Assembly (NCBI GenBank): GCA_964016885.1
Contig: OZ024740.1
Coordinates: forward strand, 153,450,001-153,514,000
Length of the DNA: 64,000 bases
Source of the DNA: Eledone cirrhosa
Lineage: Eukaryota
Direction of reading: 5' to 3'
The notes below the pieces were generated by a model, which worked only from the letters and a program-made list of their open reading frames with translations, searched no databases and had not been told where the DNA came from. Shown in pieces: positions 5 to 58,390 of the stretch. Position 1 is the first letter of the stretch; every line of letters starts with the position of its first letter. The translations under genes and the position numbers were made by a program.

Positions 5-328
5 TCTTCTGGACAGCAGTTTAGCCATTGTGATGTGAGCTGGTAGATGATCAGGCTTCACACGCAATGCTTCCTGGTACCAGAATTCTGCCTTGGCCTC
101 ATCATCTGTCTTCATGTAAGCTTCACCTAACATATTGTAAATACTCTGCAATCCATAATAACTGGGTGCCCTTCGGATGGCTGCATTATAGGTTTCAATT
201 GCTAGTTGGTAATTCTGTTGGTCTGCATACATTCTACCGAGGTTATAGAGAGCAGAGATCTTGGTACTTTCGTGAAGTCGGGGGTCTCGCAGACCCGTGA
301 TATCTATATTTGAACAGTTCAAATAACT
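5..328 (-). CDS. TMTC2: TMTC2-like O-mannosyltransferase, TPR-region exon (108 codons, phase 0/0)
   Basis: Hand translation: SYLNCSNIDITGLRDPRLHESTKISALYNLGRMYADQQNYQLAIETYNAAIRRAPSYYGLQSIYNMLGEAYMKTDEAKAEFWYQEALRVKPDHLPAHITMAKLLSRR. These are TPR repeats matching the TMTC2 pattern. Acceptor poly-T...tttacag ends at 329, donor GTAA at 4-1. Not in the ORF track. Confidence 0.9.
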
Positions 329-1091
329 CTGTAAATATAAAAAAAAAAAAAAAAAAGATTTGTTAATAAACAACAATCACAAAATAGAAAAATGCAACTA
401 CAATCTTCTGCACCAGGCATTACATGGCACCCCATCCCCATCCCACCCTTCGAAATGTAAGAAATCAACATTTTCCCTTGCGGAATGGAAACTTTAATTC
501 ATAAATATCAAGTAAGCAAAGATGACAAGGAGAGATAACTCTTGAGTGGGAAGCGAGAGTTATTACCCTTGAGTTATAAACTAGTGGCTCCAGAGTGCAT
601 ACGAGCTCCAATGTACGATTTAATTGATCGTAAACAATCTACAGCACCGAAACAAAAAGCAGAGGGCACAAGGCATATATATATATTGATTCGGAGAAAA
701 ATAACTGAATTTTATAATATTCAAATGTTGTTGTCATTAATGGATTAAATATCTTTTCAAGCTGGAATGCAAAATTATAAAACGTGTTTTTCTTATTTCT
801 GTTCAATATATTTTCATTGATAGGGAAGTGTAGCTGCTCATATACTAAAAGGAAAATATGGAGAAGAAATGGTGGTTAAACTATTTTTTTAAATTACTAG
901 GGTCGGACGAGAAATCTAGGAATTTCTCTTCTCTTTTAAAAAATTATCTTGGTTCAAATTATATAACTATATTTCTAAGTCGTACATATTTTTTGAACTG
1001 AACAAAGTAAGCAATATTTATTACTAATATTTAAAACCAATACCGTTTCAACTGAATACATAAACAATATCTATTAAATATAATAATAATG

Positions 1092-6509: not shown

Positions 6510-6965
6510 TAACTTATGATAAGTGCCCTTCCTCCCACAAAATCATCTCCTGGATCCCACCCCTGTTCTCAACCCCGGAGCCATACATGCAACTTTATCT
6601 CCAATACCCTTTTCCATCTGAATGACCGGTCCTTATGGGTTAGGGACTCCTTCAGCTGGACCTCCACCAGCCAGGTCTATGGGATCTGTTGTACTCTGTT
6701 CAGAGTCATCTACCTAAGTCAATCTGGTTGTCGTCTGGCCGACAGATTTGCTGAAAACCTTCAGGACATCTAAATCAGCAACCTGACTTCGATCTATAAC
6801 ATTTTCGATCTGCCAGCCACTCCACATGTTACCTCAGTTCTTCGGGCTCGCACATTGTGTGCCAGACCCTTTGGCTCGCACTGGCGTAAAGAACATCAAC
6901 TTATATTTTCTTTACAAACCTTTCATCCCCCCCAGCCTTAATGCCTCACCCATCTCCTTATAATC
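6510..6965 (+). mobile_element. Decayed Penelope-like element GIY-YIG endonuclease fragment
   Basis: PGSHPCSQPRSHTCNFI...DSFSWTSTSQVYGICCTLFRVIYLSQSGCRLADRFAENLQDI...HFRSASH...KEHQLIFSLQTFHPP..LN is a degenerate match to the PLE pattern CxxxxCxxC, VIY..C..C..YIG.T.R.L..RF.EH and E..LI..L.T..P.GLN. Confidence 0.75.
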
Positions 6966-11810: not shown

Positions 11811-11998
11811 GCGGTGGATTGGCAGTATCGGTAGAGGGTCGGAGCCATGCTTTAACGCAAAGAGTTACGGCCCTTGCCATTCTCAGTTCAAATCCCGCCG
11901 ATGTTAACTTTGCCTTTCATCCTGACGGGGTCGATAAAATAAAGTACCAGTAATGCACTGGATAATTGCTGGCTTTGTGCCAAAAGTAGAAACAATTA
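11811..11998 (+). mobile_element. SINE family A inside a (TA)n array
   Basis: gcggtggatttggcagtatcggtagag...gtagaaacaatt. Confidence 0.85.
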
Positions 11999-12205
11999 TA
12001 TATTATATATTATATTATATTATATATATATATTATATTATATATTATATATTATATATATATATATATATTATATATTATACTATATATTATACTATAT
12101 TATATATATATATATATATATTATATTATATATTATATTATATATTATACTATATATTATACTATATTATATATATATATATATTATATATATATATTAT
12201 ATTAT

Positions 12206-12743
12206 ACAATTAAGTTAAAAGTGTACATCCACATATGTATACTGAAATACTAGTATGCATATAAATACACACACGTATACATATGTACATGTACCGAGTT
12301 TTTCACTGGACACTTTACTGTGAGTGTCCAGCTAGTCTGTATGTAACCAAACAGACAAACCGGTTTTTAGAGTCATACGGGTTTTCAAGGAAACACCTTT
12401 CCTCTATTCTCCATAGAGCCAGACAGGAATATTGGACTAGTTTCGATGTTATTACATCTCCTCAGCAATATATACCCATCTTCCGGCTTCTCTGGAGAAT
12501 CGTAAAAGCACATATCGTTATATGCTTTTTCTATGAAAATTAGTAGTGGGCAGACTAATTTGCATAGAACGTGAGTACGCACCGGTTCAGCGGAAACGAT
12601 AAAAACAAATAGACTAGCTGGACACTCACAGTAAAGTGTCCAGTGAAAAACTCGGTACATGTACATATGTATACGTGTGTGTATTTATATGCATACTAGT
12701 ATTTCAGTATACATATGTGGATGTACACTTTTAACTTAATTGT
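12206..12743. repeat. Perfect 133-bp inverted repeat (12206-12338 / 12611-12743) with a 272-bp spacer
   Basis: The arms read as exact reverse complements by eye. Each arm contains a CTGGACACT-N8-AGTGTCCAG hairpin, and the spacer holds a hammerhead. Confidence 0.92.
12429..12471 (-). ncRNA. Minimal type I hammerhead ribozyme
   Basis: AUAUUG CUGAGGA GAUGU-aaua-ACAUC GAAA CUAG UC^ CAAUAU. Intact core, 6-bp stem I, 5-bp stem II, palindromic ACUAGU stem III. Confidence 0.85.
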
Positions 12744-12815
12744 TTAAGCGTCAGTCATACAAAAGTGAGTTACAAACGAAACAAAATTTAATTTTGTTTC
12801 GTTATTTGTTTTTAT

Positions 12816-12859
<44 letters not shown>

Positions 12860-12860
12860 A

Positions 12861-15800
12861 GGGATTGACCTCTCTCTCTCTTGGCCTGCTGAAATCGCCT
12901 CTCACCCCCTCACTCTCACTATCATATACGCTGCTCTCACACTCCCCCTCACTCCTTGCCAACCAAATATAAATAAGCCTTGCTACATGGGACTAAACCC
13001 AGAATTTGTCTCCTATTATTGATGGTCGCTTGTTCAGTTTTCTTCTACGAAATGTAACGTACATATCCATTTCTTCTCAACTCTCCACATTCGGTTCATT
13101 CATCTATATATCTTACAATCGCTCAGAATCAAAAAATCGTATTCAAAATTGGCTTTCTATAATTCTGTTCTGTCTCACCGTTGTTCTAAAAATAATTCTG
13201 CAAACTACCTCAAACTACCTCGCAAACTACCCCATACCCCTCCCTCTGGCCCCCACTCTCCACCTTATTATTTGGACCAATCACAAGTAAACGACCTATG
13301 CTAGCACTTCTGGTTGCTTTTTCGATATGATGGATGAACTAGGGAATTTCTGGAGAGTCAGAAGAATCTGGACACCCGAAGACAATGCAAAAGATAACGA
13401 CAAATTCACCTCATGCTGCCGGACGAAAGGGCAAAGCCCCACCTTCTTTATTGCAGCCGCGGATGGCCAACATAACCCCAACCCCATCAACCACACCCCT
13501 CCCTGCACCCCACCCACCAAACGTAATCCAAAACTTCAGAGTTGGTACCATGAATGTAGGGACCTTAAAATGCCGCTCAAACGAGGTTGTAGAAATGCTT
13601 GAACGTAAGGAGGTTGATGTCTGCTGCATCCAAGAGACCAGGTGGAGAGGCGGGTCTGCTAGATTCATTGTGGGTAAAAAACGATGCTATAAGCTTTTCT
13701 GGGTGGGAAATGACAATGGGCTGGGTGGGGTAGGAATCATGTTAGCAGAAAAATGGGTGGATAAGATAATAGACGTAAATAGAGTAAACGACAGAATAAT
13801 TAAAATAAGACTTGTTCTAAATAGAACTACTGTGACGATAATATCTGCGTACGCACCCCAATCCGGACTGCCTGGCGCTATAAAAGACACTTTCTATGAG
13901 ACACTGATGCTCACTACCTCCCAAATAACCGACGGTGACTATATAATTATTGCTGGCGACCTAAATGGTCACGTTGGACAACATTGTGATGGCTATGATG
14001 AAATCCATGGAGGCTATGGGTTTGGTACTAGAAATGAGGAAGGCTCCAGAATCCTGGAATTCTGTGACGCAAATAACCTAACAATCTGTAACACTAACTT
14101 CAAAAAACGAGACAATCACTTGATCACCTACAGATCAGGGGAACATACCAGCCAGGTAGATTATATCCTTACCAGAAGACGTGACAGAGTGACTGTTGTA
14201 AACACTAAATCCCTCCCCCATGAAGAATGCACCTCCCAACATAGACTGATAATTAGCGACCTATAGTCAGGACGAGACGTACTCGACAGCAGAAGAGGAC
14301 TATCCTCAAGAGAAAAATATGGAAGCTAAAGGACACCACAGCCAGAAATAAATTTCAAAGCATATTACTTGATGCTTTCGACAGTAAGGAAGAGCATTTA
14401 GAGTCGGACAGTGGGAATCCTTGAAAGCAAACCTGCTGATGGTGGCAGACGAAGTCTGGGGCCGGAGCAGGCCTATAGGCAGGAGGAGAGTAACATGGTG
14501 GTGGAACAGTAAGGTGGAGGAGTCGATTAAGGCCAAAAAGCAGGCTTGGAAAATATGGCGGGATGGGGGAAGTAGAGAAGACTATCAAGTGGCCAGGAGG
14601 GAAGCTAGGAGACAAGTGTACTTCGCAAGAAGGGAAGCAGAGGAAAGAAAGTTCAAGCATGTTCTACAACGCGAGGACCAAAAACGTGAGGTGTTCAGGA
14701 TTGCTAGGCAATGTGTCAAGGAAAACCGTGATATTGTTGGGGAGAAGTGTGTACTAAATGATGATGGCATGCTCGCCATCACTGACGCTGATAAGAAGGT
14801 CGCTTGGAAGTGTCACTACGAGAGGCTACTAAATGAGGAGAATAAATGGGAGAAGGATAGTCTCCCCCAGATCGATCCAATAGAGGGACCAGCAGTGTTA
14901 GTTGAAGGTAGTATAATAAGTAAGGCAATCAAAGATATGAAGACGGGTAAGGCGGCTGGGCCTTCGGAAATAGTTGCCGAGATGCTGAAGGCCTCTGGAA
15001 CGGTGGGACACACCATGGTCACCCGGATAGTAAACCAAGTCATACAGAATGGGGTGGTTCCGAAGGACTGGCGTAGCAGCATCATCATTAACTGTTACAA
15101 GGGTAAAGGAGACGCCCTAGATAGGAGTAACTATAGAGGGATTAAATTAATCGACCAGGTCATGAAGGTCACGGAAAAAGTAATAGTGCAACTAATCAGA
15201 GAGAGAATTGATCTAGATGAAATGCAGTTCGGGTTTGTGTCAGGCAAAAGTACCACAGACGCTCTTTTCATTGTACGGCAACTACAGGAGAAGTACCTAG
15301 CTAAAAGTAAACCCCTATACTTAGCCTTTGTCGACTTGGAGAAAGCCTTCGACAGAGTCCCCCGTTCCATTATCTGGTGGGCTCTTAGAAAACTAGGTGT
15401 TGACGAATGGCTTGTGAGAGCTATACAAGCCATGTATAAAGAAACAGTGAGCAAGGTTAGAATTAACAACGAATATAGTGAAGAGTTTAGCGTAAAAGCT
15501 GGTGTCCATCAGGGCTCTGTTCTTAGCCACCTACTATTCATTATTGCTCTTCAGGCTATAACAGAGGAGTTCAAAACCGGCTGCCCATGGGAACTCCTAT
15601 ACGCAGATGACCTAACGCTCATAGCTGAATCAATGGCCGAGCTAGAGAAGAAATTCCAAACATGGAAGCATGGCCTAGAATCAAAAGGCCTTAAAATTAA
15701 CATGGCTAAGACTAAAGTTCTAGTTTGTAGGAAAGAAAATAAGGCGCCGGTCCCTTCCGGGAAATGGCCATGCTCGGTGTGTAGGAAAGGCGTAGGTAGA

Positions 15801-17052
15801 AACTCCATTTTATGTCCCAAATGCAAAGTATGGGTGCATAAAAGATGTAGTGGGATCACAGGTAAGCTAACTAAGAACATAGATTTTACATGTGGCCGGT
15901 GCTCTGGTGCAATAAGTAGCAGCAAGTGCCCACAAAATACTAGCTCTTTCAACTGCGCAGAGGGTTCTATAGAAATAGTGGACAGCTTCCGTTACCTGGG
16001 TGACAAAATCAGGAGTGGGGGAGGGTGCTCCGAAAGTACAGTAGCTAGAGTCAGAACTGGATGGAAAAAGTTCAGAGAGCTTATACCACTATTAGCCGCT
16101 AAAGGGTTCTCCATAAAAATGAAAGGCAGGTTGTATGATGCCTGCATACGAACAGCAATGTTGCATGGCAGTGAGACCTGGGCATTGTGTGCAGAGGATA
16201 TACACAGACTAAAGAGGAACGAAGCTTGCATGCTCCGCTGGATGTGTAATAGTAATATACGCGAACGGCAAAGCATTAACGAACTAAGGAAAAAATTAGA
16301 AATAAGAGGGATCAGATGTTTACTCGAGAGAAGGCTACGTTGGTATGGTCACGTGATGCACATGAAAGACGACAGCTGTATAGCAAAGTGCAGGGCAATA
16401 AAGATAGACGGTAGCCACAGAGTAGGCAGACCCAGAAAAACCTGGGACGAGCTGATAAATTCCGACCTCACACACTTACACCTCTCCAAGACAATGTCAC
16501 TGGACCGAGACCTTTGGCGGTACTCAGTAATAGAGAAGACCCGCCTTGCCTAAATACAAAGTAAAATCTACTACAGTCAGTAGGCATCTCTAACAAAATA
16601 CACCCCGTCCCACCACCCCCACCCCATCCACACCGCCCCTTTCAATGTAAAGTTATGTTGGTGCCACGAAATCCAGGCCGAAACAAATGAGATCGTGTAG
16701 GTGTCACGACAAAAAGAACACACAGTCCACGCTGTAATGTGACCGTGTAGGCAACACGGTAAAAACCTCCCAGTCCCACACTGTAAATGTGGTTGGTGTT
16801 AGGAAGGGAATCCAGCTGTAGAAAACCTGCCAAACAGTCCACGCTGTAATGTGGCCGTGTAGGCAACACAGTAAAAACCTCCCAGCCCCACACTGTAAAT
16901 GTGGTTGGTGTTAGGAAGGGCATCCAACTGTAGAAAACCCGCCAGACAGTCCTATGCGAGCAAGACAACCACTCTTGCCTCAAGTGGGAAAACTCCCGTC
17001 CAAACCCATGCAAGCATGGAACACGGACGTTAAACGATGATGATGATGATGA
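12861..17052 (+). mobile_element. Near full-length RTE-clade non-LTR retrotransposon (LINE), antisense to the host gene
   Basis: 5' UTR, APE endonuclease, RT, ~500-bp 3' UTR and (TGA)n tail. Both flanks are (TA)-rich microsatellite. Confidence 0.92.
13385..16553 (+). pseudogene. LINE ORF (APE endonuclease + reverse transcriptase + PHD-like finger) broken by two frameshifts
   Basis: APE motifs TMNVGTL, IQETRW, SAYAPQ, GDLNGHVG, QVDYIL and SQHRLI. A third frame at 14263-14410 bridges the two ORFs (..RKIWKLKD..). RT motifs NYRGIKL, QFGF, FVDLEKAFD, HQGSVLS, YADD and FRYLG, then the RTE C-terminal RLRWYGHV..GRPRKTW. Confidence 0.9.
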
Positions 17053-17751: not shown

Positions 17752-19001
17752 GTATATATATATGAGCTCTAGCCGTTTCGACAGCTATATCTAGCTGTCA
17801 AGACGGCCGGAGCTCAGCCGTCAGGGTCCTGAACCTTTTTCCTACACACACACACATATATATATATATATTATTCTTTCTCATTAATATTCACATAAAA
17901 ATTAATAATCATGTATAATTATTAAACATTTTTTTACCCAATTTATTTTTTGAGAGAAAGGCCACAAATTTCATATAGCTTAGGGTTTCAGCACGTGAAA
18001 GTTCGCCTCTTGAAAAAAAGAGAAGGGCACATTAATAATGTAGCCCTTGCGAACTTTTAAAAAGATGCGATATCATCCTCTATTTACTTCTGCTTTCCAT
18101 GTTGGTAATTGTTCGATGGGTTTTCTATGTCAGAGTAGAACGGCTAGTGAATGATGTCTTGCTAAAACATTCTATATTTTGGCATGGCTTCTACTGACAG
18201 ATGCTCAGAATATACTAAATGCTATTATAATGTCACTAACACTTTACAGAGGTACATTTCTTCATGGCACCAACAGCACTATTTTACAGAGTGTACTAGG
18301 TACATTTGATCTGGGCATCAGTCAGAGAGGTTGTTATATTTTTGACCAAATAAATATATTAAGTCTGTCTTCAGCTTAAAGCTCACCAAGCTAGAGATTA
18401 TACTGGTTTCATAAAGTGTCAGACAACTGAAGTTTCAAAACTCTACCCTATGTGGAATGTCTCTAAAATCTGTCTCAAGCCTGGAGGCTCATTAAGCCGA
18501 TGTTTATCCCAGTTTCCTTGAGGTTAACTGAAGTAGAAAATAGCCTCTGGACTCAATGCCAGTCTATTGCAAGGTTAAAACCCCAGTTACTGCAGGTACT
18601 CATTTCTAATACTCAGTATATAAGAGCAAAGAGGAAGTAAAGTATTTTTCTCCAAGAACACAACACACAGCCTGATCCAGGTATCAAACTAACAACATTA
18701 TAATCGTAATTCCAACTGAGTGAGATACCACTATGGCTAATAAATAAAGATATAAAAGAAAGAAAAAAAGATGGAATGACCATGCTTAGGACATATTTGA
18801 TCATATGTCTGCTGAATCAGTGTTGACCTGGAAATAAGCAACAACAACATCAATAACTTATAGATTATAGCTTATCTAGTTCTCAGTATATAATACTATA
18901 GTTTACACTACATTAAAGTCAAGAACAGAAAGAAACAAATCTGTTTCACCAGAGATTTGTTTATATTAAAAGTTGAACTTTGAAAGTCACAAGTAACTTA
19001 C

Positions 19002-19063
19002 TTTTTCTGCTTCATCATTTTTACCTAGCAAACCATAGACAATCCCTAGATTCAGGTAAGCCA
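19002..19063 (-). CDS. TMTC2: TMTC2-like 62-bp exon (TPR)
   Basis: ttttttcttgcag|TG GCT TAC CTG AAT CTA GGG ... GAA AAA|gtaagt = (M)AYLNLGIVYGLLGKNDEAEK. Phase 1 in and phase 0 out, which joins both neighbouring exons in frame. Confidence 0.9.
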
Positions 19064-19094
19064 CTGCAAGAAAAAACAAAAAAAACAATGATAA

Positions 19095-32609: not shown

Positions 32610-32654
32610 ATTAGCCGACAATGTTTCGTCCTATTAAGGACTCATCAGGGCAAT
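32610..32654 (-). ncRNA. Minimal type I hammerhead ribozyme
   Basis: AUUGCC CUGAUGA GUCC-uuaaua-GGAC GAAA CAUUG UC^ GGC(U)AAU. Canonical core, stem II GUCC/GGAC, GUC cleavage triplet. Confidence 0.85.
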
Positions 32655-57578: not shown

Positions 57579-57768
57579 AACCTTCCATCATAATTTCATT
57601 TTAGAAATTGTTCTTAAGTAACTGAAACCAGTAGATTTGAACTAAAAGGTCTGCTCAATCAGCATTGATATAGAGCTACAACACTACCTTAACAAACCAG
57701 TCTAATCTATGTCACCATGGTAACGTAGACATGATAATGATGATAATGATGACTAAAAACATACATAC

Positions 57769-58390
57769 CAGTTTGAAAATTTGAAGAAAAGTCTTTGGTG
57801 ATATTTTCTGTTGAACAAACACCTCATAGATGATGCATATACCCAGAACAGTAATCCCATGTTCTTTGGTCAACATGCTCATGGTAGCCAAAATAGTAGA
57901 CAAAAACAAGTACAAAAGCCTCTTGCTATAATTTGGTGTCATTTCAGAGTTGGTAAATTCTTTAGGGTCTCCATCACAATAGCCATCTCTGTAGTAGATA
58001 TATTGACGGTAACTAAGAAAGCTGAGTATGAAAAACAAACATGCTCCAACATCAGCTCGACCTACAATGCCAGCAACAGCTTCAGTGTGAATTGGGTGTG
58101 TGGCGAACAAGAGTCCTGCTAGAAGTGTCGATAGACTCCTTTGGAGGAAAACACTAGACATGTGAGTGAAGACAACTGTGACTAATGAGTGAAGTAAGAC
58201 ATTGGTAAAATGATAACTCCAAGGGTTTAGCTTACTGAAGAAGTGATTCAGACGGAAAGAGAGGACACATATTGGCCTATATGATTTGTGTGAACCACTG
58301 TTGACCAATGGTGTTCCCCAGAAATCACTGTAAAAAATGTTTTGGATTGGTGTCTCAGGAAGGAGGTCGGGGTTCTTCTGAACAGCTCGA
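57769..58390 (-). CDS. TMTC2: TMTC2-like 622-bp exon (N-terminal luminal loop and TM helices; probable second coding exon)
   Basis: Within ORF 57712..58413: RAVQKNPDLLPETP..DFWGTPLVNSGSHKSYRPICVLSFRLN, HPIHTEAVAGIVGRAD and KEHGIT, which are hallmark TMTC2 motifs. Acceptor tctttacag, donor CTG|gtatgt. Confidence 0.95.

Follow-up and report, generated by a model that had tools for sequence, protein, structure and literature searches.

A 465-nt Hammerhead Retrozyme in a TMTC2 Intron of Eledone cirrhosa, Likely Inserted in Trans by a Penelope-like Element as Two Head-to-Head Truncated Copies

An Inverted, Noncoding Insertion in a TMTC2 Intron

The window studied here is a stretch of 64,000 nucleotides from Eledone cirrhosa (contig OZ024740.1, positions 153,450,001 to 153,514,000) that carries exons of TMTC2; the exon at 57760-58389 shares 90% identity with Octopus bimaculoides TMTC2, and tblastn placed the last exons of the gene just outside the window, in a neighboring stretch (L181). 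An element at 12206-12815 lies within an 18.7-kb intron of this gene, with 6.2 kb and 11.9 kb separating it from the nearest exons and its hammerhead ribozyme in sense to the pre-mRNA. An earlier note, made from the sequence of the window alone, had spoken of a host intron, and the exons on either side (19067-18990 and 331-5, minus strand) identify that host as TMTC2. The same intron also holds nine SINE copies or pieces in both orientations. A SINE of ~190 nt occupies 11812-11995 of the window and recurs at ~20 other places, often beside (TA)n and in both orientations, with 72–92% identity between copies and a head that appears tRNA-like by eye. A LINE at 13343-16553 (plus strand), in the same intron, encodes an endonuclease (PF03372) and a reverse transcriptase (RT; PF00078) in two frames, with a PHD finger inside the RT open reading frame (ORF).

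Mapped onto the unit of a tandem locus (L005) as monomer reference, the insertion resolves into two arms (table 1). Arm B, of ~405 nt and 97% identical to that unit, crosses the ribozyme cleavage site and terminates at a tail-less site, which we call site B; base 12611 is common to arms A and B, giving 1 nt of exact microhomology at the inner junction. The inverted repeat arises where two 5′-truncated copies, joined head to head, overlap: complementarity between 12206-12338 and 12611-12743 is exact over 133 bp, as the earlier note had read it, ends on both sides and encloses a loop of 272 nt, and a mismatch-tolerant repeat search at the same locus returns an inverted repeat of 143 nt at 98%. 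Both arms contain the 9-bp hairpin (at 12306-12331 and, mirrored, in the right arm), and the hairpin at 12775-12803 is likewise present, as first described. The extent of the element, drawn at 12206-12743, needed correction, for the right arm continues to 12815 and the hairpin at 12775-12803 lies in the tail of the element, where it likely forms part of a protein-binding signal. A paired G>A/C>T change in this tail hairpin was considered as covariation and rejected, having been seen once while other copies carry single changes. No ORF of at least 100 aa crosses 12206-12815, and the element lacks the RT and GIY-YIG ORF by which an autonomous Penelope-like element (PLE) would be recognized.

Table 1. 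Features of the insertion, its ribozyme and its surroundings (window coordinates)
Feature	Position	Strand	Description
Whole insertion	12206..12815		Two 5′-truncated copies of the 465-nt hammerhead monomer, head to head; 3′ ends out into (TA)n
Arm B	12206..12610	-	Monomer ~290-465 then 1-229, numbered from the hammerhead cut
Arm A	12611..12815	+	Monomer ~97-301; terminus is tailed site A; ~205 nt
Perfect inverted repeat, left arm	12206..12338	+	Monomer part present in both copies
Perfect inverted repeat, right arm	12611..12743	+	Monomer part present in both copies
Tail	12744..12815	+	Stretch of arm A past site B; 72 nt in this copy, 74 nt if measured from the modal B end
Tail hairpin, 13 bp	12775-12803	+	Retained across the 465-nt family, with a shorter form in the sister family
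Left (TA)n-type target flank	11996..12205		Sequence
Right (TA)n target flank	12816..12858		Sequence
Type I hammerhead	12412..12484	-	Rfam HH9, 30.4 bits, E 0.0013
Hammerhead stem I	12471-12466 with 12434-12429	-	Extended, bulged
Hammerhead core CUGAGGA	12465-12459	-	Followed by stem II (12458-12445) and GAAA
Hammerhead stem III	CUAG loop 12440-12437	-	1 bp
TMTC2 exon upstream of the element-bearing intron	18990..19067	-	tblastn; splice ends seen
TMTC2 exon downstream of the element-bearing intron	5..331	-	tblastn

A Type I Hammerhead with a One-Base-Pair Stem III

The hammerhead that the earlier note placed in the loop is borne out by a match to HH9 at 12412-12484 (minus strand), which scores below the gathering score of 52 for that family and has covarying stems. 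Its elements follow one another in the order CUGAGGA, stem II, GAAA, CUAG and UC, with a predicted cut after 12435, and the 91-nt region containing them folds with z = -2.6. Against sister families (described below), 5 of 15 pairs in stems I and II are changed on both sides, and 95.6% of cells in the alignment pair, compared with 34–49% in slid controls; the alignment comprises six distinct rows from few lineages, and its covariation is hence support for the fold, not proof. The catalytic core of this copy is intact except at the tolerant N7 position.

The suggestion of a self-cleaving loop did not hold up equally well. Efficient cleavage by this lone hammerhead is unlikely, as is strong cutting of the TMTC2 pre-mRNA, because stem III is a single base pair closed by CUAG and because the insertion contains one hammerhead only. 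This judgment is by analogy: in the accessible text of PMC7229834, an axolotl ribozyme with the same form of stem III cut to 6% in an hour as a monomer, whereas its dimers cleaved well. The CUAG palindrome of stem III is able to pair between two hammerhead copies. Two consecutive hammerheads, which the available part of a 2026 preprint takes as the mark of an active copy, are lacking at 12206-12815 and found in other members of the family. A second, unrelated type I hammerhead (Hammerhead_1, 31.7 bits, E 0.0006) lies at 32610-32654 on the minus strand in another TMTC2 intron, where it adjoins (TA)n and probably marks one terminus of a further PLE or retrozyme.

A Dispersed Family with Two Fixed Ends

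Genome searches run separately with the loop and with the arm, a check suggested by the earlier note, recover the same dispersed family at 96–100%, and inversion proves to be family-wide rather than the mark of a TIR element; an exact 25-mer of the family has 167 matches genome-wide, compared with none for the reversed control. Tandem loci define a monomer of 465 nt with one hammerhead, and the repeat at 12206-12815 is a dispersed, noncoding type I hammerhead repeat, that is, a non-LTR retrozyme. We gathered 82 distinct insertions and scored 81, one cut by a locus edge being omitted; drawn from the best 40 matches and from exact 25-mer matches on C1–C5, the sample is biased to young copies. 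Arms shorter than 42 nt were left unscored, and several copies counted as single-armed show, by eye, a short inverted stub with the other end type. A segmental duplicate (C1:139416065) is kept in the tally of end pairs and omitted from the arm-mismatch, containment, junction, and exact-repeat counts.

Two-armed insertions make up 54 of the 81, and in all 54 the 3′ ends point outward. Arm ends fall at two sites 74 nt apart on the monomer, B at ~227 and A at ~301, and the two-armed insertions nearly always combine them: 49 are A+B, one is A+A, none is B+B and four have one end elsewhere (binomial 49 versus 1, p = 4.5e-14, with one of the 49 being the segmental duplicate). The sole A+A insertion (C4:119564733; L107:4234-4512) has a short arm that starts at monomer position 223, next to site B, and may be a tail-only piece. 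A TA-rich flank is present on at least one side of 75 of the 81 insertions, and on both sides of 54; the insertion ends, compared across the family, lack direct terminal repeats. Inner junctions carry filler bases in 14 of 53 cases, and among the 39 filler-free junctions 14 have microhomology of at least 3 nt, against 6% expected. Stops at the 5′ side are raised at monomer positions 1-62 and 280-341. Truncation at the ribozyme cut was considered and dropped, as there is no pile-up at the cut and stops also follow strong hairpins, which leaves the pattern uninformative.

The fixed ends extend to related elements. The sister hammerhead retrozymes (L189:7570-8700 at C4:351546563, L171:7560-9001, L184, L185, and L191–L220) have monomers of 442 nt in L200 and ~510 nt in L171, with the same hammerhead type, a tail hairpin, and A+B ends; an array of at least eight units occurs in L204, and two copies, L184 and L185, are found less than 50 kb from the window. 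In the 442-nt sister family, whose ends are homologous to A and B of the 465-nt family, 16 of 21 two-armed insertions are A+B and none is A+A or B+B, the remaining five having an end elsewhere or cut (counted by eye on 30 loci, 24 of them distinct).

These counts bear on two explanations that would make the inverted repeat something other than a retroelement insertion. A DNA transposon of MITE or foldback type, bounded by terminal inverted repeats and bearing a hammerhead-like motif by chance, would fit the long perfect repeats at 12206-12743 and the TA-rich target; however, arm lengths run from 108 to 1213 nt for A and from 44 to 1764 nt for B, with no fixed terminal repeats across copies, which refutes it. 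Its two ends, moreover, are different sequences of a tandem monomer, at least two hammerhead cores stand on one strand in 13 of the 82 insertions (head-to-tail arrays), and the stems covary across sister families. The hammerhead core is almost invariant in ~60 arms; an ordinary MITE with an unconserved loop motif was what the earlier note had named as a refuting finding. A fold-back artifact of sequencing or assembly, to which the identity of the two arms at 12206-12815 might point, is just as hard to credit: neither flank mirrors the other, the right arm carries 72 nt that are absent from the left, both ends sit on the fixed sites of the family, and the layout recurs at 54 loci, whose arms differ on average by 0.9%.

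A few individual copies are of note. The largest palindrome seen in the family, C1:193161540 (L121:3541-5880), has arms measuring 1312 and 1023 nt that are exactly complementary over 672 bp and is inserted, judging by eye from its flank matches, at the tail-less terminus of an L161-type PLE. Two pairs of copies share flanks (C1:139188570 with C1:139416065, and C1:248159524 with C1:248955974, the latter 0.8 Mb apart in opposite orientation); these are either segmental duplications or assembly duplicates.

Shared Variants Point to a Common Template

The arms of one insertion differ at 90 of 9948 sites (0.9%), compared with 3.3% between insertions, and none of 2000 permutations reached so low a within-insertion mismatch. 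Between the tandem units of a single arm the difference is 0.87%, and this agreement between inverted and tandem mismatch argues against any special conversion linking the arms and in favor of their having been identical when inserted. Among the variants private to one insertion (48 insertions), 15 are found in all passes, one in some and 96 in a single pass, the last group fitting the pattern expected of later mutation; the insertion at C12:14420721 carries three private variants in all four of its tandem units. The cleavage site is crossed by 70 of 108 arms. Judged from sequence comparison, two primings on one, possibly circular, RNA would fit the shared variants, and a single monomeric circle would most simply account for both these and the site-crossing arms. 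Alternatively, a homogeneous uncut multimer or rare subfamilies outside the sample could explain the shared variants, as could gene conversion.

The same mismatch rate bears on the age of the TMTC2 copy, which the earlier note had called very recent on the strength of its perfect arms. At 0.9% mismatch a perfect stretch of 133 bp has a probability of 0.30, and the copy carries, outside the inverted repeat, changes found in no or few other copies (one of them at hammerhead N7), such that nothing supports recency beyond the general youth of the family. The picture of a ribozyme caged by the arms fares similarly: the position of the hammerhead within the loop is a by-product of the truncation points, and copies contain 0 to 5 cores. 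An exact inversion of this length lies far outside chance expectation, yet it is common in the family: 31 of 53 two-armed copies match or exceed 133 bp (median 152). Given these counts and the probability of 0.30, neither perfection nor caging is special.

Indeed, the insertion at 12206-12815 is a typical copy of its family, ordinary in layout, arm length, and identity, and is likely an inert passenger of the TMTC2 intron. A contrary reading would make the hairpin and ribozyme a functional regulatory device, acting through editing, small RNA, or a cut that lowers TMTC2 output. It could draw on the intronic position and sense orientation of the hammerhead, the predicted perfect duplex of 133 bp, and the largely intact catalytic core; we nonetheless regard it as very unlikely, considering the typicality of the copy, the weak cutting predicted from stem III and the single hammerhead, the distance to the nearest exons, the other inverted SINE pairs of the same intron, and the want of any sign of selection on the copy. 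The octopus lineage is known for heavy A-to-I editing, and insertions of this family add long predicted intronic duplexes to it; as a predicted structure, the 133-bp duplex is a plausible substrate for ADAR or Dicer, as had been suggested. Among 56 template-borne variants in family copies, A>G and T>C changes (nine each) are not in excess, and hence no editing footprint was found.

Penelope-like Elements as the Candidate Source of the Machinery

PLEs with an RT, a GIY-YIG domain, and a CX2-5CxxC finger are abundant in the genome: there are at least 150 GIY-YIG loci among the matches listed (10,596 first-look candidates), and PLE ORFs reach 938 and 1096 residues, measured stop to stop. Near-complete ORFs with all three features lie at L161:3309-6122 (minus strand), L163:2275-5562 (plus strand), and in L162, and L166 and L175 each hold a head-to-head pair of PLE ORFs. 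We refer to PLEs with this finger as Neptune-type, a label taken from the finger as described in the accessible text of PMC8557442. The PLE in L163 lies in (TA)n and has an inverted, tail-less left end and a right end with a 40-nt tail, so that Neptune-type PLEs resemble the 465-nt family both in their (TA)n target and in their inverted and tailed ends. A minimal hammerhead-like motif is also visible by eye in L163, near 6925-6952.

None of the Neptune-type PLEs examined has pLTR sequence in common with the 465-nt family. No pLTR homologous to the family was found by blastn with monomer parts at 50 of the 150 listed GIY-YIG loci, and with neighboring stretches included the same search returned sister retrozymes only, at ~75% over short blocks. 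In tblastn with five PLE ORFs, no family copy abuts a PLE ORF, the nearest being 320 bp away. Two antisense matches of 9–13 nt to the pLTR of the L164 family are out of register by eye and were set aside as chance.

A Model of Asymmetric Priming, and a Single-Priming Alternative

The earlier note had proposed a PLE- or retrozyme-type insertion with an inverted partial copy, and this part of it stands, in the form of two head-to-head truncated monomers. We consider it likely (a probability of about 0.8) that the retrozyme was copied into (TA)n by a PLE RT-endonuclease acting in trans, its two head-to-head truncated copies overlapping to form the inverted repeat. A PLE protein, predicted to be a dimer (PMC11167929, accessible text), would bind the retrozyme RNA at its tail and nick both strands of an AT-rich target; each nick would prime one cDNA on the same RNA template, one at site A and the other at site B; both cDNAs would run 5′-ward, often through the hammerhead site (the RNA then being a circle or an uncut multimer), halt at differing points, and be joined head to head by 0–6 nt of microhomology.

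A second way of making the same ends invokes the same PLE helper and a single priming, in which the cDNA begun at site A either undergoes fold-back or serves as template for a DNA copy, the endonuclease cuts that DNA at AATT or ATAT to give end B, and the asymmetry of the junctions arises from later central deletions. It has published grounds, at least in the portions of the sources available: the tail of PLE insertions was ascribed to EN-mediated resolution (PMC8557442), palindromes at junctions were read as self-priming (PMC3846280), and the PLE endonuclease of anole prefers ATT (PMC11167929), with site B lying within AATT. It accounts equally well for the shared variants and the strict A+B pairing, and 3 of the 49 A+B junctions are indeed symmetric palindromes (5′ ends at 61/61, 59/59, and 331/331). 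The other 46 junctions are asymmetric, however, and in 22 of the 49 the length of arm B exceeds that of arm A once the tail is subtracted from the latter. The content of one arm lies inside that of the other in 41 of 48 insertions, so that DNA fold-back could still have produced those 41; in seven of the 48, including 12206-12815, neither lies inside the other, and these need either two templated syntheses or a later, central deletion. The single-priming scheme must therefore add extra deletions, and the tail boundaries coincide with RT start sites in vitro (PMC11167929, accessible text). Overall the data of the family lean against an origin of end B by fold-back and endonuclease cutting, and we judge it an unlikely route.

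Returning to priming by the helper on both target strands, we tentatively hypothesize, at somewhat less than even odds, that PLE insertion proceeds obligately by asymmetric double priming, both starts being made on a single circular retrozyme RNA. One protomer of the dimer would always begin on the 3′ side of the tail and the other always on its 5′ side, both would copy around that circle, and their cDNAs would be joined head to head. If this is true, the 49 versus 1 versus 0 end pairs of the 465-nt family, the 16 versus 0 versus 0 of the 442-nt family, and the private variants carried by every tandem unit and both arms would be in vivo evidence that priming is asymmetric and that transposition uses a circular template, with the 465-nt RNA offering a compact substrate on which to test asymmetric priming.

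Comparison with Known Systems

Metazoan non-LTR retrozymes have been described (Cervera and de la Pena 2020, PMC7229834), and they have been presented as PLE derivatives tied to PLE pLTRs (Li, Clavereau and Pollet 2026, 10.64898/2026.07.22.740005); as far as the accessible parts of these two sources go, their members are likewise short noncoding monomers with one type I hammerhead, found as monomers and head-to-tail arrays. The unit of 465 nt is slightly longer than the 150–450 bp given in the former and falls within the 51–972 bp given in the latter, and its one-base-pair stem III, capped by a palindromic tetraloop, is shared with HHR_Amex1 of axolotl (PMC7229834). An octopus host, inverted arms, and fixed ends go beyond what the available text of these sources describes for metazoan retrozymes.

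The layout is closer to that of EN+ PLEs, whose insertions include an inverted 5′-truncated copy and a tail at one end (Craig 2021, PMC8557442, Fig. 2; Arkhipova 2013, PMC3846280); in the sections of these papers available, the head-to-head copy, the tail at one end, the microsatellite target, and the microhomology junctions all have counterparts in the 465-nt family. The family differs in having no ORF and in a tail of 74 nt, compared with 30–40 bp in print, and whereas the tail of EN+ PLEs is described as often at one end, this is a near-rule here, holding for 49 of the 50 insertions whose ends both fall on site A or site B. The anole Poseidon element PAc offers an in vitro parallel: in the accessible text of PMC11167929 (Frangieh 2024), two RT start sites bound the tail, internal and downstream of the hammerhead as are the two ends of the 465-nt family, both strands of an AT-rich target are cut and extended, and cutting by the ribozyme is not required for insertion. 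Neither a difference in start site between the target strands nor a pairing of sites within single insertions is reported for PAc in vitro in that text, whereas the two ends of a 465-nt family insertion almost never use the same site. We found no report of octopus retrozymes or of counted A+B pairing, a weak negative given that subscription journals and preprint supplements were outside the coverage of the literature search.

The retrozyme class and the PLE insertion layout are known already, and the insertion in TMTC2 adds an octopus member to them. The locus itself matters little, being a typical copy of a known class; the 465-nt family has more to offer, for it is young and free of ORFs, with ends that can be counted. 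Its near-strict A+B pairing and its shared variants serve as a test of the PLE mechanism, bearing both on how PLEs make tandem and inverted insertions and on whether retrozyme circles act as the template.
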